Assembly (NCBI GenBank): GCA_036339235.1
Contig: JAYZCA010000101.1
Location: 1-46,161 of the forward strand
Source of the DNA: Candidatus Latescibacterota bacterium
Lineage (GTDB): Bacteria > Latescibacterota > UBA2968 > UBA8231
Direction: 5' to 3'
Length of the DNA: 46,161 nucleotides
The notes beneath the pieces were generated by a model. The model was given only the letters and a program-made list of their open reading frames with translations. It was not told the DNA's origin and did not search any database. Both the position numbers and the translations under genes were made by a program. This document shows positions 30,745-38,148 of the stretch, piece after piece (within the stretch, counting starts at the first letter, position 1; every line of letters begins with the position of its first letter).

Positions 30745-31352
30745 TGGCCTCACTTGGGCCGCAGCCGCTGGAGGACCTGGTCACGGCTCTGTCTCGCCTT
30801 CCCGGAATCGGACGCAAGACGGCGCAGCGACTGGCGATCTACCTGCTCAAGTCGCCGCCCCAGGAGGCGCAAGCACTGGCCGAAGCCATCCGCGGGGCGC
30901 GCGAGAACATCGGTCACTGCTCGCGATGTTTTCACCTGACCGAGCGCGGCAACGAGTTGTGCCATGTGTGCAGCGATACGAATCGCGATCAGGCGGTGAT
31001 CTGTGTGGTCGAAGAGGCCAGCGACGCTCTGGCTCTGGAACGTAGCGATCTGATGCGAGGCACCTACCACGTCCTTGGCGGAGCCCTGAGTCCCCTCGAC
31101 GGCATCGGCCCAGCCGACCTGCGCATCGACGAGCTGGTCGAGAGAGTGCGTCGCGACGGCGTGCGCGAGGTCATCCTGGCACACAACGCCAGCGCCGAAG
31201 GCGAGGCGACGGCGGAGTACATCCATCAGCGGCTGGACGGGCTCACCACTGTCACCCGGCTGGCTCGCGGCCTGCCCGCTGGCTCCGATCTGGACCTGGC
31301 GGACCGCACGACCCTGGCTCACGCCCTGCAGGGACGCACGACCTTCAAATGA
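30744..31352 (+). CDS. recR: recombination protein RecR
   Basis: LPGIGRKTAQRLAIYLL helix-hairpin-helix, Cys4 zinc finger CSRCFHLTE...CHVC and a Toprim region are present. The ATG overlaps the dnaX stop (TAATG). Confidence 0.9.
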
Positions 31353-31948
31353 CGGACACAGCAAGCGGGCGCCGGACGATCGTCAACCTGCCCAATATTC
31401 TCACGGTTTCGCGCATTCTCGCCACGCCTCTGTTTCTGGCGATGCTGTTCTCCGAGGGCGCCCACTGGCGGGGCGCCGCTGTCATCGTGTTCCTGCTGGC
31501 GTCCCTCACCGATCTCTACGACGGCCGGCTGGCGAGGGCGCGCGATTGTGTCACCGAGTTCGGCCGCTTCATGGACCCCCTGGCCGACAAGATCCTGGTC
31601 ACCTCGGCGCTCGTCGCCTTCGCCCTGGGACGGATCGTCAACGCCTGGATCGTGGTGCCCATCGTCATCCGCGACGTGGTCATCACCGGCATGCGGATGT
31701 ATGGTCTCTATCAGGGCCGCATGATGGAGACCTCGCGACTGGCCAAGTGGAAGACGACGGTGCAGCTGGTCACCGTCATCGTCATCCTGACACTTGTCGG
31801 CCTGCAGGAAGTCGCCGGCTACTACGAGTGGGGTGTGCAGGCGGCGTGGGCCTGGCTGCCCCTGCTGAGCAATGGCCTGATGGCGGCGGTCCTCGTGCTT
31901 ACCCTGATGTCCGGTTTTCACTACTTTTTTCGTACCGGATCGGCCTGA
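31349..31948 (+). CDS. pgsA: CDP-diacylglycerol--glycerol-3-phosphate 3-phosphatidyltransferase
   Basis: PNILTVSRI and the CDP-alcohol phosphotransferase motif DLYDGRLAR....[11 protein letters not shown] are present. ATGA overlap with recR. Confidence 0.85.
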
Positions 31949-32397
31949 TCGCCTTCCTGCGGACCGTTATCGCCACCGTGCTGTTCTCGGGGCGAGCACC
32001 GATTGCTCCGGGCACGACGGGCTCGGCGGTCACAGCCGTCGCCTGGTTCGTCTTCGGCAGTTCTCTGACGCCATTGGTGTGGGTTCTGCTGCTGGTGGGG
32101 GTCACGGCAGTCGCCGTCGTCACGGCTGGTGCCGAAGCGCGGGCCCTCGGCCGCCAGGATCCGGGACCGGTGGTGATCGACGAGGCGGCGGGGTTCCTGT
32201 TCACCGTGGCCTTCCTCCCCCACGGCCTGTGGACGACCCTGGCGGCGTTTGTGCTGTTCCGCATCCTCGATATCATCAAGCCGCCTCCTGCCCGCCAGCT
32301 GGAAGCCCTGCACGGTGGCTGGGGGATCGTCCTGGACGACGTGGCTGCCGGCATCATGGGCAATCTGCTGCTGCGCGCCGGCCTGGCCCTGCTGTAA
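31939..32397 (+). CDS. pgpA: phosphatidylglycerophosphatase A (start codon unresolved)
   Basis: [37 protein letters not shown] and [12 protein letters not shown] are PgpA-like. The first canonical in-frame start (GTG 31978) would remove the conserved N-terminal helix. ATC 31939 and CTG 31945 are the only upstream options. Confidence 0.7.
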
Positions 32398-32459: not shown

Positions 32460-33551
32460 ATGGCCAAGAAGGACAACAACGGCAAGGCACCCGACGACAA
32501 GGGCAAGCAGCAGTCCCTCGATCTGGCGCTGGCGCAGATCGAGAAGCAGTACGGCAAGGGATCTATCATGCGCATGGGGGCGGAGGGTGGCATCGTCGAA
32601 GCCGAAGCCATCTCATCGGGGGCGCTGTCCATCGATCTGGCGCTGGGTATCGGCGGGTTCCCCCGCGGCCGGATCGTCGAGATCTATGGCCCGGAAGGGG
32701 CCGGCAAGACGATGGTGTCGCTGCACGCAATCCGCGAGGCACAGCGTGCCGGCGGCACGGCGGCCTTCATCGATGCGGAGCACGCCCTCGATATCACCTT
32801 CGCGCGGCGTATCGGCGTCGACGTCGAGAACCTGATCATCTCGCAGCCCGACTCCGGTGAGCAGGCTCTGGAGATCGTCGAGACCCTGGTGCGTTCGGGC
32901 GCCTTCGACATCATCGTTCTCGACTCGGTGGCAGCTCTGGTGCCGCAGGCAGAACTCGAGGGTGACATGGGAGACTCGCACATGGGGCTGCACGCGCGGC
33001 TGATGTCGCAGGCTCTGCGCAAGCTGACGGGCAGCATCAGCCGCTCGCGCACATGCGTGATCTTCATCAACCAGTTGCGCATGAAGATCGGCGTCATGTT
33101 CGGCAATCCAGAGACGACGACGGGCGGTCGAGCCATGGGTTTCTACGCCTCGGTCCGTGTCGATATCCGTCGTATCGGCCACATCAAGAATGGCGACACG
33201 AACATCGGCATCCGAGCCCGCGTCAAGATCGTGAAGAACAAGCTGGCGCCTCCGTACCGGCAGGCGGAGTTCGACATCTACTTCTCCGGCGAGAAGATCG
33301 GCGTGTCGCGCGAGGCGGATCTGCTCGACATCGGCGTGGAGCACGAGCTGGTGGACAAGGCGGGGACCTGGTTTTCATACGAGGGCGAGCGCCTCGGCCA
33401 GGGGCGGGAGAATGCTCGCCAGTATCTCGCCGAGAACCCTGCGGTGGCACAGGCGATCGAGACCCGCCTGCGCGTCGCACTGGGCCTCGCCACTGCCCCC
33501 GAAAAGGCGCAGAAGCCTCCCGTGCCTGCCGACGACAGCGCCGCAGAGTAG
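32460..33551 (+). CDS. recA: recombinase RecA
   Basis: [21 protein letters not shown], Walker [18 protein letters not shown] and the [23 protein letters not shown] loop. The tracked 32079 start lies inside pgpA. Confidence 0.95.
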
Positions 33552-33560
33552 TCGATCGCT

Positions 33561-34049
33561 GTGAACGACATCAAAGGACGCGAAAAAACGCGCCGCATCG
33601 CCTTCGATCTGCTGGGAGTACGGGACCGTTCCGTGAAGCAGATGCGGGAGCGTCTGGCCAAGCGGGGCTGCGCAACTAGTGACATTGACACTGTGGTGGC
33701 CGACCTGGAGGCTTTGGGTCTGCTCGACGACTTCAAGTACGTGCGCCGCTGGATCGAGACTCGGCGCGAGCGCCGACCCGAGGGCGTGCCCAAGGTCACG
33801 CGCGACCTGTTGCGTCGGGGCATCGACAAGGCCGCTATCGAGCAGGTGCTGGCCGAACTCGATGTCGACCTGGCGTCAGGGGAGGAGGCTCTGCAACTGC
33901 TGCGTCGCAACAGCGGCCGCTACGCGGGTCTCGATGCGTTGAAAGCGCGGCGGCGTATGATGGGTTTGCTGGCGCGGCGCGGGTTTGATCCGGAGACGAC
34001 CCGCAAGGCGGTGGAGACCGCCTGGTCCGAATTCGAAGGTGACGAGTGA
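33561..34049 (+). CDS. recX: RecA regulator RecX
   Basis: Position directly after recA. Three-repeat helical pattern (A.DLL..R.RS..Q.R..L...G, L..LGLLDD..Y...W). GTG start. Confidence 0.8.
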   Translation: MNDIKGREKTRRIAFDLLGVRDRSVKQMRERLAKRGCATSDIDTVVADLEALGLLDDFKYVRRWIETRRERRPEGVPKVTRDLLRRGIDKAAIEQVLAELDVDLASGEEALQLLRRNSGRYAGLDALKARRRMMGLLARRGFDPETTRKAVETAWSEFEGDE

Positions 34050-36658
34050 TGAAGTCCAGAGAGATCCGCGAGACCTTCCTGTCCTTCTTCGAGGGCAAGG
34101 GCCACACGCGCGTGCCCAGCGCCTCCGTCGCCCCCACGGACGACCCCACCCTGTATTTCACCAACGCCGGGATGAACCAGTTCAAGGACGTGTTCCTCGG
34201 GCTGGGCAGCCGGCCGTACTCCCGAGCCGTGGACACGCAGAAGTGCATCCGCGTCTCCGGCAAGCACAACGACCTCGAAGAGGTCGGCGTCAGCCCGTGG
34301 CATCACACGTTCTTCGAGATGCTCGGCAACTGGTCCTTCGGCGACTATTTCAAGGAAGAGGCCATCCAGTGGCATTGGGAACTGGTGACCGAACGCTTCG
34401 GTATGGACAAGGAGCGCCTGTGGGCGACGGTTTTCGAGGGAGGCGAGGGCGTACCCGCTGACGACGATGCCGAAGCCCTGTGGACGAAGGTCACCGATTT
34501 GCCGTCGGACCGCGTCGTCAGGCTGCCGGCGAAGGACAACTTCTGGGAGATGGGGGAGACCGGCCCCTGCGGGCCGTGCTCCGAACTGCACTATTACCTC
34601 GGCGATGATCTGCAGGCCCAGAACCTGGATCTGTTCCTGCAGGACGGGCCCGAGTTCGTCGAGATCGGCAATCTCGTCTTCATCCAGTTCAACCGGGACC
34701 AGGAAGGTTCCCTGCAGCCTCTGCCCGCCCAGCACGTCGACACAGGCACCGGCTTCGAGCGTCTGTGTGGCCTGTTGCAGAACAAGGACAACAACTACGA
34801 CACCGACGTCTTCCGGCCGCTCATCGAGCACATCGCCGACGTCACGGGCGGTGACCCCGACAGCGACGCCGGCCGGGTCCCCATGCGCGTCATCGCCGAT
34901 CACGTTCGTTCCCTGACCTTCGCCATCGCCGACGGGGCGTTGCCCGCCAATGACGGCCGTGGCTACGTGCTGCGCCGCATCCTGCGTAGGGCGTCACGCT
35001 TCGGTCGCCAACTCGACCAGCACGAGCCCTTCATCCACAAGCTGGTGGAGCCCCTGGCCGCCTCGGTGGCGCACGTGTTCCCGGAGGCCGCCGCCCAGGC
35101 GACGCACATCGCCATGGTGATCGAGGCCGAGGAGGAATCCTTCGGCAACACTCTCGATCGTGGTCTCGAGATCTTCGCACGCCTCGGCGACAAGGGGGAT
35201 ATTTCCGGCGCTGACGCATTTCAGCTCTACGACACGTACGGCTTTCCCCTTGACCTGACGGAGCTGATGGCACGCGAGCGCGGCCTCAGCGTCGACACGG
35301 ACGGGTTCGAGCGCGAACTCGAGCATCAGCGCCAGCGGGGCCGGGCGGCTACGAAGGGGTGCTTTCGTGCTACCGAGGGTGTGGAGGACGCGGTCGCCGG
35401 CGAACACTCGGAGTTCATCGGCTACGACGAACTCGAGGCCGATGCCATCGCCGTCCACGTCGAGTCAGTGGAGGACACGGTGCGCGTCGTGCTCGACAAG
35501 ACACCGTTCTACGCCGAGTCGGGTGGCCAGGTGGGTGACCGCGGCATGTTGCAGGGGGACGGCTTCCGCATCGAGGTCGAAGACACGTTGAAAGCCCGTG
35601 GCGGTATCGTCCATGCCGGTACTCTTGTCAGCGGTGAACTGCCCGTCGCCGGTGCCGCCATGCACGCCGCCGTCGACAGGTCGGCGCGCGACGCCGTGGC
35701 CCGCAATCACACATCGACACACCTGCTGCACGAGGCCCTGCGCCGCACCCTTGGTGACCATGTCGGGCAGATGGGCTCCCTCGTGTCTCCCGATCGTCTG
35801 CGCTTCGACTTCTCCCACTTTCACGCCATGGAGCCGGAGCAGCTGCTGCAGGTGGATCAGATCGTCAACGAGCGGATCCGCGACGACCTGGAGATCTCCA
35901 CCTTCGAAGAGGATCTTGATCGCGCCAAGACGCTCGGGGCCCGGGCCCTGTTCGGCGAGAAGTACGGCGACCGTGTGCGCGTTGTGAAGATCGAGAATTT
36001 CAGCCTCGAGCTGTGCGGCGGGACGCACGTAAGACACACGGGACAGATCGGCGCCTTCGATCTGAGCCTGGAGAGCGGTATCGCCGCTGGCACGCGGCGA
36101 ATCGAGGCTCTCACCGGCGCCGGCGCCGAGCAGGCCGCCCGGCAACACCGCCAGTGGCTCGGCGAGATCGGCCAGTTGCTGAATGCGCCCTCCGGGGCGT
36201 TGCCCGAACAGGTGCGGGCCCTGCAGGAGCGCATGCGGGAACTGGAGAAGGCTCTGGCCGAGGCGCGACGCAAGGCCGCCGATGACAGCGCCGCAGACCT
36301 GACGGCGGGGGCCGTCGACATCGATGGGGTCCACGTTGTGGCCAGCCGTGTGCAGGTCGACGACATCGGCGCCTTGCGCTCGATGGCTGACGGTATCCGC
36401 GAGGGGTTGAGTTCAGGTGTCGGAGTGCTTGGAGCTGACGTGGCGGGTAAGGTCTCCTTCATCGCTGTTGTCACCCAGGATCTGATCGAGAAGCGTGGCC
36501 TCAAGGCGGGAGACGTGGTCAAGGAGGTGGCGCAGATCGCCGGTGGATCCGGGGGTGGCAAGTCGCACATGGCCCAGGCCGGCGGCAAGGATCCCGGAAA
36601 AATCGACGCGGCCATCGCCGCCGCGCCTGAGATCATCAGGCGGCGCTTGGCGGGCTGA
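34049..36658 (+). CDS. alaS: alanine--tRNA ligase
   Basis: IRETFLSFFEGKGHTRVPSAS, FTNAGMNQFK, HHTFFEMLGNWSFGDYFK and the editing-domain HTSTHLLH / CGGTH motifs. GTG 34046 is an alternative start. Confidence 0.95.
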   Translation: MKSREIRETFLSFFEGKGHTRVPSASVAPTDDPTLYFTNAGMNQFKDVFLGLGSRPYSRAVDTQKCIRVSGKHNDLEEVGVSPWHHTFFEMLGNWSFGDYFKEEAIQWHWELVTERFGMDKERLWATVFEGGEGVPADDDAEALWTKVTDLPSDRVVRLPAKDNFWEMGETGPCGPCSELHYYLGDDLQAQNLDLFLQDGPEFVEIGNLVFIQFNRDQEGSLQPLPAQHVDTGTGFERLCGLLQNKDNNYDTDVFRPLIEHIADVTGGDPDSDAGRVPMRVIADHVRSLTFAIADGALPANDGRGYVLRRILRRASRFGRQLDQHEPFIHKLVEPLAASVAHVFPEAAAQATHIAMVIEAEEESFGNTLDRGLEIFARLGDKGDISGADAFQLYDTYGFPLDLTELMARERGLSVDTDGFERELEHQRQRGRAATKGCFRATEGVEDAVAGEHSEFIGYDELEADAIAVHVESVEDTVRVVLDKTPFYAESGGQVGDRGMLQGDGFRIEVEDTLKARGGIVHAGTLVSGELPVAGAAMHAAVDRSARDAVARNHTSTHLLHEALRRTLGDHVGQMGSLVSPDRLRFDFSHFHAMEPEQLLQVDQIVNERIRDDLEISTFEEDLDRAKTLGARALFGEKYGDRVRVVKIENFSLELCGGTHVRHTGQIGAFDLSLESGIAAGTRRIEALTGAGAEQAARQHRQWLGEIGQLLNAPSGALPEQVRALQERMRELEKALAEARRKAADDSAADLTAGAVDIDGVHVVASRVQVDDIGALRSMADGIREGLSSGVGVLGADVAGKVSFIAVVTQDLIEKRGLKAGDVVKEVAQIAGGSGGGKSHMAQAGGKDPGKIDAAIAAAPEIIRRRLAG

Positions 36659-36670
36659 GAATAGCGCCTG

Positions 36671-37417
36671 ATGAAAAGCACGCTCGAAAGACTCCTGGAG
36701 GTACGCGCGCGGCGGGGGGCAGGGTACCTGACCCTGCTCGATCCGGATCGGCTGTCCCTCGACGAACTCGAAAGCCGGGCGCAGGCGTGCGCCGACGCCG
36801 GCGCCGACGGCATCTTGGTCGGTACGAGCCTGATGTTGTCCGCGCCCGGCAATACGCGACTCTTCGAACGGCTCCGCGTCGCCGTCGACATCCCCGTGAT
36901 CTCCTTCCCGGGGGATGCCGGCCAGGTGGTGAGCACGGCGGATGCGATCCTGTTCCTGAGCATGGTGAGCGGTCGCAACGCGGAGCTGCTCATCGGTCAG
37001 CACGTACGAGCGGCGCCCCTGCTGAAGGAATACGGCGTCGAGGTGATTCCAACGGCCTACATGCTGGTCGAATCGGGTACCCTCACCTCCGTCGAATACA
37101 TGAGTAATACCAAGCCCATACCGCGCGCCAAGGACGACATCGCCATGGCGCATGCGCTGGCGGCGCAGTACCTGGGCATGAAGCTGGTCTATCTGGAGAC
37201 GGGCAGCGGTGCAGCCGCCTCCGTACCGGTGTCGATGGTCCGCTCCGTATCCCGCTACGTCGATCTGCCCGTCATCGTCGGCGGCGGCATACGCGATCCC
37301 GAGGTGGCGCGCGAAAAGGTCGACGCCGGCGCCGCCTTCGTCGTCACTGGAAGTGTAGTGGAAGACGACCCGGGCAGGCTGCGGGAACTCAGTGCCGCCG
37401 TCCATGTCTCCGGGTGA
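36671..37417 (+). CDS. geranylgeranylglyceryl phosphate synthase-like prenyltransferase (PcrB/GGGPS family, group II-like)
   Basis: LLDPD, ADGILVGTS, IPVISFPGD, ADAILFLSMVSGRN, IPTAYMLVE, AQYLGMKLVYLETGSGA and LPVIVGGGIR align along the whole length with my memory of archaeal group II GGGPS. Confidence 0.8.
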   Translation: MKSTLERLLEVRARRGAGYLTLLDPDRLSLDELESRAQACADAGADGILVGTSLMLSAPGNTRLFERLRVAVDIPVISFPGDAGQVVSTADAILFLSMVSGRNAELLIGQHVRAAPLLKEYGVEVIPTAYMLVESGTLTSVEYMSNTKPIPRAKDDIAMAHALAAQYLGMKLVYLETGSGAAASVPVSMVRSVSRYVDLPVIVGGGIRDPEVAREKVDAGAAFVVTGSVVEDDPGRLRELSAAVHVSG

Positions 37418-38148
37418 GTTCGCCGGAGGTGACGGTCTCGTCGACATTCACTGTCACGCCCTGCCGGGCGTCGACGACGGCGCTGCCAGCGTCGCCATGG
37501 GCCTCGACATGTTACGCCGCGCCCGCCGACGAGGGCGTCGATGACGTGGTGCTCACGCCGCACTACAGGCCCGAGGACGGACCGGAGCGGGCGCAGCAGT
37601 TGCAGGATTATTTCGAGGGGTTCGCTGTCGACGTCGCCGACGCCGGTATCGGCGTGAGAGTCCATCTCGGCGCTGAATTGGGGTTTCGCTTCGGCCTGGC
37701 TCATCTGGCACAGTCTCACGATGGCGCGACTGGCTGGCGGGCCGTATGTGCTCGTCGACCTGCCCCCCGGACCGCTGTCACCCGGGCTGGAACAGGCGTT
37801 CTTCGAAATCCGCACGGCGGGCTACCGGCCGGTGCTGGCCCATCCGGAGCGGCACCGTGAGCTGGCCGCCGCTTCGGTCGCCGCGCCCAGGCCGCTGCCA
37901 TCTGTCTTGCCGAGTCCGGGCAGGCTGACTTCGTCGGCAGCGACGGGCACGACCTGGAGAAACGGCCTCTGTCCCTGCGCTCCGCCTACGAGCAGATGGT
38001 CGGGCTGACCGGGGCTGAGGAGGCACAACGGCTGTTCGCACGCAACCCGCTGCTGTGTATTGACGGGAAACAGGTAGAAACGGGGCCTCGCAATGTGGCC
38101 AGGGAACGTCCCGGTATGTGGTCCTGGCTGCGTCAGCGGCTCGGTTAG
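37404..38148 (+). pseudogene. disrupted CpsB/YwqE-like PHP-family protein-tyrosine phosphatase
   Basis: Homologous segments lie in three frames. LVDIHCHALPGVDDGA...LDMLRRA starts at ATG 37404 and stops at 37542. GVDDVVLTPHY...HLGAELGF is in the frame of ORF 37414. YVLVDLP...GYRPVLAHPERH is in ORF 37721. RRAQAAAICLAESGQADFVGSDGH...ARNP ends at TAG 38146-38148. About 35-40 aa expected between AHPERH and the SDGH block are missing. Confidence 0.65.

Follow-up and report, generated by a model that had tools for sequence, protein, structure and literature searches.

A predicted group II geranylgeranylglyceryl-phosphate synthase encoded downstream of alaS in a marine Latescibacterota genome

Geranylgeranylglyceryl-phosphate synthase (GGGPS) commits a cell to archaeal-type lipids, in which an isoprenoid chain is ether-bonded to a glycerol-1-phosphate (G1P) backbone; its occurrence in bacteria is thus relevant to the 'lipid divide' and to the possible natural existence of mixed membranes. 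Orthologs of GGGPS and of DGGGP synthase (DGGGPS) were found in 12 of 12 FCB phyla surveyed, including Latescibacteria (Coleman 2019; PMC6431249). Cloacimonetes enzymes were shown to be active, and recombinant Cloacimonetes GGGPS made GGGP (Villanueva et al. 2021, ISME J; PMC7852524). The presence of both lipid chemistries in one FCB cell, a mixed membrane, is a published hypothesis (PMC7852524). GGGPS in Latescibacterota is thus already known, and documented for the FCB superphylum; since the point is in print, the finding of the gene alone adds little. New here are the counts revealing the near-universality of GGGPS and of an unlinked DGGGPS-like UbiA gene in the phylum, a cut G1P dehydrogenase (G1PDH)-like gene, the identity of a PHP phosphatase relic, and the adjacency of alaS and GGGPS across several FCB phyla. 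Leads from this genome are the decayed partner phosphatase beside GGGPS and the cut-off G1PDH-like gene elsewhere. Furthermore, close relatives vary in the G1PDH-like gene and the GGGPS-linked phosphatase, and provide pairs for asking which accessory genes set the stereochemistry and fate of bacterial ether lipids.

The DNA analyzed here, referred to as the window, is the whole of a 46-kb contig (C101) from a marine Latescibacterota MAG that is 76% complete and comprises 430 contigs. Its GGGPS resembles that of Ca. Cloacimonetes (Cloacimonadota), which is also group II and FCB-type, with 51% identity to the copy in MAG NIOZ-UU1 from the study with the recombinant enzyme (PMC7852524). Both lineages have a DGGGPS homolog in the genome and a PHP phosphatase gene directly downstream of GGGPS; CDP-archaeol synthase (CarS, PF01864) is missing in Cloacimonadota, and a search of the present genome, which is 76% complete, gave no match. 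However, DGGGPS adjoins GGGPS in Cloacimonadota (9 of 9 loci), whereas here GGGPS follows alaS, the DGGGPS-like gene is unlinked and the phosphatase is only a relic. An AraM-type G1PDH-like gene is present here but was not found in the four MAGs of Villanueva et al. (PMC7852524).

The GGGPS of F. johnsoniae (4jej, group IIb), the best-scoring solved structure, is bacterial as well, has the same catalytic residues and uses the C20 substrate that is also predicted here; it is a dimer with Arg as the anchor residue, whereas Tyr143 leads to the prediction of a hexamer for the present protein. The enzyme of M. thermautotrophicus (4mm1, group IIa, hexamer) has in common the limiter Val86, an aromatic anchor, Thr in loop beta-alpha-8 and the Tyr/Tyr/Glu triad, but is archaeal and part of a complete G1PDH-GGGPS-DGGGPS-CarS pathway. 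B. subtilis PcrB (group Ib) belongs to the same family, PF01884, and catalyzes the same type of reaction in a bacterial host that has an AraM-type G1P dehydrogenase, and its product is dephosphorylated before use; it differs as a group I enzyme with a C35 substrate, a structure match of 41 bits and no second prenyl transfer.

Gene order and distribution of GGGPS

The following features of the window are relevant:

31349..31948, + strand: pgsA, bacterial CDP-diacylglycerol--glycerol-3-phosphate phosphatidyltransferase (TIGR00560, 122.7 bits, cut-off 109.1)
about 31945..32397, + strand: PgpA-like phosphatidylglycerophosphatase (NF008288, E 7.6e-23, 81 bits and thus short of the 226-bit cut-off; sole family match)
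32460..34049, + strand: recA and recX (from the ORF list; three RecX domains), the first genes of the conserved recA-recX-alaS-GGGPS block
34046..36658, + strand: alaS, alanyl-tRNA synthetase, an 870-aa ORF immediately upstream of GGGPS
36671..37417, + strand: predicted group II GGGPS, ATG start, 248 aa, intact
37414..38145, + strand: relic of a CpsB/YwqE-type PHP-family phosphatase gene, two frames of which match PF19567
38158..40231, + strand: ptsH (HPr; PF00381, E 6.4e-32) and ptsI, the downstream context of GGGPS

A sequence-only reading of the window had described GGGPS as lying in a bacterial housekeeping context, 12 nt after alaS, overlapping a downstream pseudogene and close to a bacterial-type pgsA-pgpA pair. 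This description proved accurate. The genes are ordered recA-recX-alaS-GGGPS-(PHP relic)-ptsH-ptsI; alaS ends at 36658 and GGGPS starts at 36671; the first frame of the relic overlaps the GGGPS stop codon (GTGA at 37414-37417); and the pgsA-pgpA pair, with recR as the ORF just before pgsA, is located about 4.3 kb upstream of GGGPS. The same reading had noted neither a UbiA-type DGGGP synthase nor a G1P dehydrogenase in the window. All matches of the genome to the UbiA and G1PDH families fall outside C101; therefore, both genes are indeed absent from the window.

The order recA-recX-alaS-GGGPS was kept in 15 of 15 close loci (L016-L030), closed chromosomes among them, and HPr directly follows GGGPS in those relatives that have no PHP gene (L019-L022, L025). 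In a wider set from several FCB phyla, the 3' end of alaS is located at most 450 nt upstream of GGGPS (38 of 69 related loci). No terminator-like or promoter-like site was found on the + strand in the 12-nt gap between alaS and GGGPS, and GGGPS is probably co-transcribed with alaS by read-through. Near-identical contigs from RNA libraries fall inside GGGPS; they are few and short, could be carried-over DNA, and none of them spans alaS and GGGPS.

The lineage is abundant and widespread in marine plankton, and at least nine studies have yielded seawater metagenomes that contain the locus. Within the phylum, GGGPS orthologs were found in 143 of 151 genomes and in all 52 of the high-quality ones; as a core gene of Latescibacterota, GGGPS is inherited vertically and present in a single copy. 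In a GGGPS tree, the query falls inside a Latescibacterota clade (99*). Bacteroidota form a separate half of 78 rows, and archaeal-type sequences a clade of 16 rows nested among other FCB lineages, in a tree that was built without a group I outgroup and leaves the deep forks unresolved. The 78-row half carried no labels and was considered as archaeal; this was rejected, as its nearest structure is 4jej and its contigs carry gliding/T9SS genes, SecA and RNase Y, which identifies it as Bacteroidota.

Family assignment and functional residues

The GGGPS protein passed the family cut-offs of PF01884 (143.7 bits, cut-off 23.9, E 7.7e-42) and TIGR01768 (180.4 bits, cut-off 113.3), as well as those of NF003198 (270.3 bits, cut-off 247) and of the GGGP equivalog TIGR01769 (197.7 bits, cut-off 161.6). 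Structures of group II enzymes (F. johnsoniae 4jej, M. thermautotrophicus 4mm1, 6jo3, 6nke) scored 131-169 bits, the best being 4jej (E 1.3e-48) and 4mm1 (E 6.4e-47), as compared to 41-45 bits for group I structures (A. fulgidus 2f6u, B. subtilis PcrB 3vzx/1viz). The equivalog model for heptaprenyl PcrB, NF003197, gave 31.1 bits at a cut-off of 260. Judged from these comparisons, the ORF at 36671..37417 is a group II GGGPS and not an enzyme of the Bacillus PcrB type. The sequence-only reading had arrived at the same archaeal-type (group II) assignment from sequence motifs, all of which are there: FPG (79-81), SGRN (100-103), YLETGSGA (174-181) and GGGIR (204-208). It had named a grouping with PcrB as evidence to the contrary, and GGGPS does not group with PcrB.

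All functional residues are present in the protein: D24, S53, V86, Y130, Y143, Y174, E176, GSG 178-180, GGG 204-206 and VTG 225-227. Every residue of the M. thermautotrophicus enzyme (Mt) named in PMC9385802 was found, and these residues are conserved across an alignment of 210 homologs; the numbering in the review differs from the SEQRES count of 4mm1, with the YxE-GSG motif being unambiguous. The Mg2+/diphosphate-binding residues D24 (Mt D25) and S53 (Mt S54) are conserved in 206 and 204 of the 210 homologs, respectively. Y130, Y174 and E176 correspond to the Tyr/Tyr/Glu triad for G1P stereospecificity and catalysis. The phosphate-binding loops are standard (G178-S179-G180, G204-G205-G206, V225-T226-G227); Thr in loop beta-alpha-8 is the group II residue, as opposed to Asn in group I, whereas most other bacterial sequences of the alignment have Val or Ile there. 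SGRN represents the bacterial variant of this motif: the 15 archaeal-type sequences in the alignment have N-S at 100-101, unlike the S-G found here.

Val86 aligns with Mt V86 and with I90 of the F. johnsoniae enzyme, the small aliphatic limiter in helix alpha-3', which is only 'proposed' as a limiter in the literature; from this residue, specificity for the C20 substrate is predicted. Tyr143 occupies the aromatic-anchor position, for which a rule on the oligomer state of GGGPS has been described (PMC7888582), and a hexamer is predicted.

Taken as an active group II GGGPS, the protein would convert geranylgeranyl diphosphate (GGPP) and G1P to GGGP, a reading to which we assign a probability of about 0.8; we infer activity, chain length, stereochemistry, oligomer state and product fate from sequence comparison. 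The enzyme would act as a (beta-alpha)8-barrel prenyltransferase that ionises GGPP with Mg2+ (Asp24) and forms an ether bond between the C20 chain and the C3 hydroxyl of G1P, with G1P presumably held by the Tyr130/Tyr174/Glu176 triad and the phosphate-binding loops.

Substrate supply and subsequent enzymes

A search of the genome for further pathway genes, as suggested in the earlier reading, yielded a G1PDH-like gene (C289), a DGGGPS-like UbiA gene (C126) and two polyprenyl synthase genes. According to that reading, the lack of any G1P source would have counted against an archaeal-type function; a candidate source exists in the AraM-type G1PDH-like gene, of which the C-terminal 176 aa are encoded at C289:3996-3469 and the remainder is cut off by the contig end. 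When the genome was searched directly with NF002022 and Pfam Fe-ADH_2, the matches were limited to aroB and generic alcohol dehydrogenases. This result was a false negative: the models match the N-terminal two-thirds, which are missing from the assembled fragment. The fragment was found via same-genus genomes and tblastn. Full-length orthologs from the same genus scored 157-160 bits with NF002022 (archaeal equivalog cut-off 413), keep the metal-ligand motifs and match PDB 9h4x 'G1P dehydrogenase' at 3.5e-42; judging by its length and name, 9h4x may be B. subtilis AraM. The neighbour of the G1PDH-like gene encodes a membrane/TPR protein and is no lipid gene. Distribution of the G1PDH-like gene is patchy, with orthologs in 28 of 151 genomes of the phylum, and it is absent from most that keep GGGPS. 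In this genome, it is the likely source of G1P.

GGPP is likely provided by a short-chain-type polyprenyl synthase encoded on C105, in which an uninterrupted DDxxD is preceded by Phe at position -5, corresponding to the type-I GGPPS pattern (PMC9385802); neither of the two polyprenyl synthases of the genome reached the GGPP-synthase equivalog cut-offs. Additionally, a protein encoded on C253 passed the GG-reductase subfamily model (203 bits, cut-off 158.8) and no specific equivalog.

The DGGGPS-like UbiA prenyltransferase gene (C126:4806-5702) is unlinked to GGGPS and has orthologs in 135 of 151 genomes of the phylum. Its best NCBIfam models are of the DGGGPS type, although the scores of 204 and 168 bits fall short of the equivalog cut-offs (269 and 296 bits, respectively). 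The protein contains both Asp-rich motifs, and its sole PDB match was M. jannaschii DGGGPS (6m31, 1.8e-25). Furthermore, reciprocal best hits connect the gene with the DGGGPS genes that adjoin GGGPS in Cloacimonadota and Poribacteria, with 30-37% identity to the Cloacimonadota proteins. An MR/MLE-family gene follows it, and the pair was considered as MenA beside MenC; this was rejected, as no MenA model matched and an MqnP-type prenyltransferase of the futalosine pathway is encoded on C425. Conceivably, GGGP is passed on to this equally conserved UbiA protein, and the resulting diether phosphate might then be activated and furnished with a head group by bacterial CdsA/PgsA/PgpA-type enzymes; we put this route at somewhat below even odds. 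Bacterial enzymes have been proposed to stand in for CarS (PMC7852524).

The phosphatase relic and the fate of the product

Compared with an intact 267-aa ortholog (L016:6757-7560), the relic downstream of GGGPS shows indels of +1, -2, -73 and +1 nt. It also occurs in two other public DNA runs, the contigs of which restore only the -2 indel. Intact orthologs match PF19567 with 180-210 bits and PDB YwqE 3qy6 at 1.4e-29; no intact paralog was found in this 76%-complete genome. The PHP gene is located directly 3' of GGGPS, whatever the upstream neighbour, in 25 of 77 loci, with cases in Cloacimonadota, Latescibacterota and Zixibacteria, and it directly follows GGGPS in about 46 of the 52 genomes of the phylum that have it. 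Sister lineages lack it, and at least 10 losses or gains were counted in the Latescibacterota family, whereas GGGPS remains intact. The PHP phosphatase is therefore dispensable for the conserved role of GGGPS.

Within the family, 15 genomes have both the PHP and the G1PDH-like gene, eight only the G1PDH-like gene, nine only the PHP gene and 31 neither. These are raw counts; among phylogenetically independent pairs, about four changed the same way, none the opposite way and five were unchanged, and the co-occurrence was not significant (sign test, median p 0.125). We tentatively suggest, as an idea that is more probably wrong than right by a good distance, that PHP may be a dedicated ether-lipid phosphatase acting on GGGP, DGGGP or an archaetidylglycerophosphate-like compound. 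G1PDH, GGGPS and PHP could then form an accessory module that was ancestral in the family and lost several times, often both genes together, and this genome would be in the middle of such a loss, its dehydrogenase retained but its phosphatase already decayed. If so, the ether-lipid pathway would gain its missing phosphatase, and natural presence/absence pairs would be at hand for testing the production of G1P-based, heterochiral lipids.

The proximity of this phosphatase also permits a different fate of GGGP, in which it would not become a bulk membrane lipid but be dephosphorylated, ancestrally by the downstream PHP phosphatase, to geranylgeranylglycerol, a minor carrier or specialised lipid comparable to acetyl-heptaprenylglycerol in B. 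subtilis. The position of the CpsB/YwqE-type gene directly after GGGPS in at least three phyla, and in nearly all genomes of the phylum that have it, is in line with this fate. The PcrB product of B. subtilis loses its phosphate through a phosphatase yet to be identified and thereafter serves as an acetyl carrier in lipoprotein N-acetylation (PMC12345273), and reviews call the function of bacterial ether lipids unknown (PMC7888582). However, the gene is a relic here and comes and goes among relatives with GGGPS intact, and the conservation of the DGGGPS-like gene, as wide as that of GGGPS, is in better agreement with a two-chain product. We consider the monoether fate possible, but rather unlikely.

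Three further explanations concern GGGPS itself. It might instead make heptaprenylglyceryl phosphate like the PcrB-type (group Ib) synthases of Bacillales, as both share PF01884 and 'geranylgeranylglyceryl/heptaprenylglyceryl phosphate synthase' is the combined name given in the public annotation; the failure of the PcrB equivalog (31 vs 260 bits), the 41 bits for PcrB structures vs 131-169 for group II, and Val86 at the proposed C20 limiter position make this highly improbable. A catabolic role, with GGGPS running in reverse or scavenging so that archaeal ether lipids from the environment are dismantled or reused, was raised by Coleman et al. (2019) for FCB genomes without G1PDH (PMC6431249), and most genomes of this phylum do lack the G1PDH-like gene. 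Yet GGGPS is universal, single-copy and in a housekeeping position after alaS, recombinant Cloacimonetes enzymes run in the synthetic direction (PMC7852524), and G1P supply is possible in E. coli without araM or egsA; we regard such a role as very improbable. Finally, archaeal DNA might have been misplaced in a bacterial bin, given a MAG of 430 contigs and 76% completeness. The likelihood of such an artefact is negligible: it is refuted by gene order, with GGGPS flanked by bacterial recA-recX-alaS and ptsH-ptsI within a 46-kb contig and the same order in 15 related loci including closed chromosomes, and by independent assemblies, with the locus being reproduced in two other public DNA runs.

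A group II GGGPS gene behind alaS

The gene for geranylgeranylglyceryl-phosphate synthase (GGGPS) was located where the sequence-only reading had placed it, 12 nt past the end of alaS and downstream of a pgsA-pgpA pair; the gene on its 3' side, claimed to be a pseudogene, indeed carries four indels. The features of the locus are:

31349..31948: pgsA; the preceding ORF is recR
about 31945..32397: PgpA-like ORF
34046..36658, + strand: alaS, stopping 12 nt 5' of GGGPS
36671..37417, + strand: GGGPS, ATG start, 248 aa
37414-38145, + strand: PHP phosphatase relic with four indels; relatives at L016:6757-7560, L033:6726-7508 and L050:6748-7530

All motifs named by the sequence-only reading were found in the protein (FPG 79-81, SGRN 100-103, YLETGSGA 174-181, GGGIR 204-208). 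It belongs to the PcrB family of Pfam (E 7.7e-42) and scored well over the curated thresholds of two NCBIfam models, NF003198 (270 bits against 247) and the GGGP equivalog TIGR01769 (197.7 bits against 161.6). Solved group II structures scored 131-169 bits (4jej, 4mm1, 6jo3, 6nke), whereas the group I structures, A. fulgidus 2f6u and B. subtilis PcrB 3vzx/1viz, reached 41-45 bits. With the heptaprenyl PcrB model NF003197, the score was 31 bits (cut-off 260). Judged by these scores, the protein is an archaeal-type (group II) GGGPS and not of the PcrB type, as had been proposed.

Functional residues of the Methanothermobacter thermautotrophicus enzyme (MtGGGPS) were taken from a 2022 review (PMC9385802), mapped via structure alignments and then checked in a 210-sequence alignment. 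All of them are intact in the window protein:

Residues of the window protein at mapped MtGGGPS functional positions
Mg2+/diphosphate binding: Asp24, Ser53
Tyr/Tyr/Glu triad: Tyr130, Tyr174, Glu176
Phosphate-binding loops: GSG 178-180, GGG 204-206, VTG 225-227
Proposed group II chain-length limiter (Mt V86, Flavobacterium johnsoniae I90): Val86
"Aromatic anchor" (Mt W141): Tyr143

The VTG loop contains the group II Thr, common to 13 of 15 archaeal-type sequences in the alignment; most other bacterial sequences have Val or Ile at this position. Val86 at the proposed limiter position is consistent with a C20 substrate. Under the rule given in PMC7888582, Tyr143 at the anchor position predicts a hexamer. 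The Flavobacteriales enzymes, which are dimers, have Arg there; in close relatives the position is Phe or Tyr.

The observation is confirmed and its interpretation supported, but bacterial GGGPS of the FCB type is already known. Orthologs of GGGPS and DGGGPS (the UbiA-family enzyme of the next prenyl transfer) were reported from each of the 12 FCB phyla surveyed, including Latescibacteria, with glycerol-1-phosphate dehydrogenase (G1PDH) only in Fibrobacteres and Cloacimonetes (Coleman et al. 2019, PMC6431249); the Cloacimonetes enzymes were shown to be active (Villanueva et al. 2021, PMC7852524). The window protein is already named by public annotation. Our additions are modest. Throughout the phylum, GGGPS and a DGGGPS-like gene are near-universal; some members of this Latescibacterota family, the window's genome among them, have an AraM-type G1PDH-like gene; a GGGPS-PHP phosphatase pair is conserved yet repeatedly lost; and GGGPS is linked to alaS over several phyla.

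Distribution and gene order

The source genome is a MAG of 3.86 Mb in 430 contigs, 76% complete. The closest GGGPS homologs (75-91% identity) come from MAGs labelled Candidatus Latescibacterota or "Gemmatimonadetes", which are the same lineage, and the locus was found again in seawater metagenomes of at least nine studies. A tree was computed for the query together with 80 labelled loci and 129 full-length representatives at 50% identity. In it, the query belongs to a 99*-supported clade of 18 Latescibacterota/"Gemmatimonadota"-labelled sequences; the tree has no group I outgroup and its deep forks are unresolved. The remainder comprises a large Bacteroidota half, recognised by nearest structure and contig content, and an archaeal-type clade of 16 rows amid other FCB lineages (nearest structures 6nke, 4mm1 and 6jo3, about 235 bits). 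Record titles of loci L016-L030 give one lineage as "Candidatus Latescibacterota" or "Gemmatimonadetes/Gemmatimonadaceae" depending on the submission, and both labels are interleaved inside the single 99*-supported clade.

Four genes were counted over one shared sample of the phylum:

Occurrence in 151 genomes of the phylum
GGGPS: 143/151 (52/52 high-quality genomes), single copy
DGGGPS-like UbiA: 135/151 (E ≤ 1e-30)
PHP phosphatase, relics and fragments included: 52/151 (E ≤ 1e-12)
G1PDH-like: 28/151 (E ≤ 1e-15)

This distribution makes GGGPS an old core gene of the phylum, vertically kept and not recently acquired. It is unlinked to the DGGGPS-like gene, from which more than 1 megabase separates it on closed chromosomes. 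One genome (G095, C60:38424-39146) has a GGGPS with one in-frame TGA.

The order recA-recX-alaS-GGGPS is kept in 15/15 close loci. Of the 69 loci with enough flank, 38 have the 3' end of alaS no more than 450 nt before GGGPS (9/9 in Latescibacterota, 7/7 in "Gemmatimonadota", 5/5 in Zixibacteria, 6/14 in Ignavibacteriota, 0/5 in Poribacteria, and 0/9 in Cloacimonadota, whose nine loci all have a DGGGPS-like gene next to GGGPS instead). In loci L016-L095, alaS also lies directly 5' of GGGPS in Kryptoniota, beside Latescibacterota, Zixibacteria and Ignavibacteriota. No mention of this linkage was found in the papers examined. Since no terminator-like or promoter-like site occurs on the + strand at the junction, read-through transcription from alaS into GGGPS is likely. 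Two marine RNA libraries yielded short, near-identical contigs within GGGPS (36873-37082 and 37130-37404), which may be DNA carry-over; none spans the junction.

Further pathway genes and a candidate G1P source

Searches of the whole genome for the UbiA and G1PDH families gave zero matches on the window's contig, in agreement with the sequence-only reading. Elsewhere, five UbiA-family genes were found. Four are best assigned as heme O synthase (C61), MqnP-like prenyltransferase (C425) and DPPRS-like (decaprenyl-phosphate phosphoribosyltransferase, C58), or have weak matches and no assignment (C221). The fifth is the DGGGPS candidate:

C126:4806-5702: UbiA-family gene, DGGGPS-type models best, under their cut-offs

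Its protein carries both Asp-rich motifs, has M. jannaschii DGGGPS 6m31 as sole solved-structure match (1.8e-25) and is the reciprocal best hit of GGGPS-adjacent DGGGPS genes from Poribacteria and Cloacimonadota, including MAG NIOZ-UU1 (Villanueva et al.). An enolase-superfamily (MR/MLE) gene lies directly 3' (C126:5702-6850, +). Furthermore, the genome encodes a geranylgeranyl-reductase-family protein (C253) and two polyprenyl synthases; in the one on C105, a Phe five positions ahead of an uninterrupted DDxxD corresponds to the type-I GGPPS pattern. CarS gave no match in this 76% complete genome.

Direct model searches of the genome for G1PDH gave no match. The two closest same-genus genomes encode a G1PDH-like protein of 439-475 aa, and the window's genome contains its C-terminal 176 residues (73% identity), with the remainder cut off by the end of a 3,996-bp contig:

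C289:3469-3996, - strand: partial AraM-type G1PDH-like gene; full-length orthologs L105:1396-2712 and L104:1294-2718

The negative model search is thus an assembly artefact, and the genome does not lack a possible G1P source, as this gene is a candidate. The only strong NCBIfam match of the full-length protein is the G1PDH model (157-160 bits, below the cut-off of 413); its best solved relative is 9h4x, deposited as "Glycerol-1-phosphate dehydrogenase" (3.5e-42), and the metal-ligand motifs are retained in alignment with M. jannaschii G1PDH. The family, also present in Myxococcota and Spirochaetaceae MAGs, is named G1P dehydrogenase by JGI and iron-containing alcohol dehydrogenase or sn-glycerol-1-phosphate dehydrogenase by NCBI.

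Its occurrence is patchy, with 28/151 genomes of the phylum, 23/63 of the family and 4/8 other genomes of the genus. A gene for a 687-aa membrane/TPR protein follows, and the G1PDH-like gene overlaps its start, which suggests an operon; this partner is no lipid gene. Therefore, GGGPS function across the phylum is independent of the G1PDH-like gene. This agrees with earlier work, in which a search of Cloacimonetes MAGs did not find egsA/araM and E. coli is noted to be able to supply G1P in their absence (PMC7852524; PMC6431249). A second copy in genome G081 (C103:23730-24927) has four in-frame TGA codons and is probably a pseudogene.

The PHP phosphatase partner

The relic at 37414-38145 derives from a CpsB/YwqE-type PHP phosphatase gene, a conserved partner of GGGPS. 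Intact orthologs are full-length enzymes of this type (PF19567 180-210 bits; PDB 3qy6, 1.4e-29). An intact gene follows GGGPS directly on the same strand in 25/77 loci (Cloacimonadota 10/11, Latescibacterota 6/9, "Gemmatimonadota" 5/7, Zixibacteria 1/4, Bacteroidota-labelled MAGs 1/2, unlabelled loci 2/19); by coordinates, the homolog adjoins GGGPS in about 46 of the 52 homolog-bearing genomes of the phylum sample. Within the phylum, the gene is repeatedly decayed or deleted: G000, G087, G118 and G132 have fragments, whereas internal stops interrupt the copies of G011, G022, G041 and G047. Two other public DNA runs have an extra AG after 37715 and keep the other indels, including a 73-nt deletion; the discrepancy reflects strain variation or else a minor error in the window's assembly. 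The assembled genome contains no intact paralog.

The main text of Villanueva et al. (PMC7852524) mentions no phosphatase. In B. subtilis, an unidentified phosphatase acts on the product of PcrB, which then serves in its dephosphorylated form as acetyl carrier for lipoprotein N-acetylation (PMC12345273). By analogy with this precedent, the FCB GGGPS product might be a specialised rather than a bulk lipid, a possibility we regard as rather unlikely.

Joint gain and loss of the PHP and G1PDH-like genes is so far no more than a lead. When 59 genomes of the family are placed on an AlaS+GGGPS tree, each gene changes state at least 10 times; about four phylogenetically independent pairs change in the same direction, none in the opposite, and five are unchanged (sign-test median p 0.125). 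Within genera g1, g7 and g5, the PHP gene is kept in exactly those genomes that bear the G1PDH-like gene.
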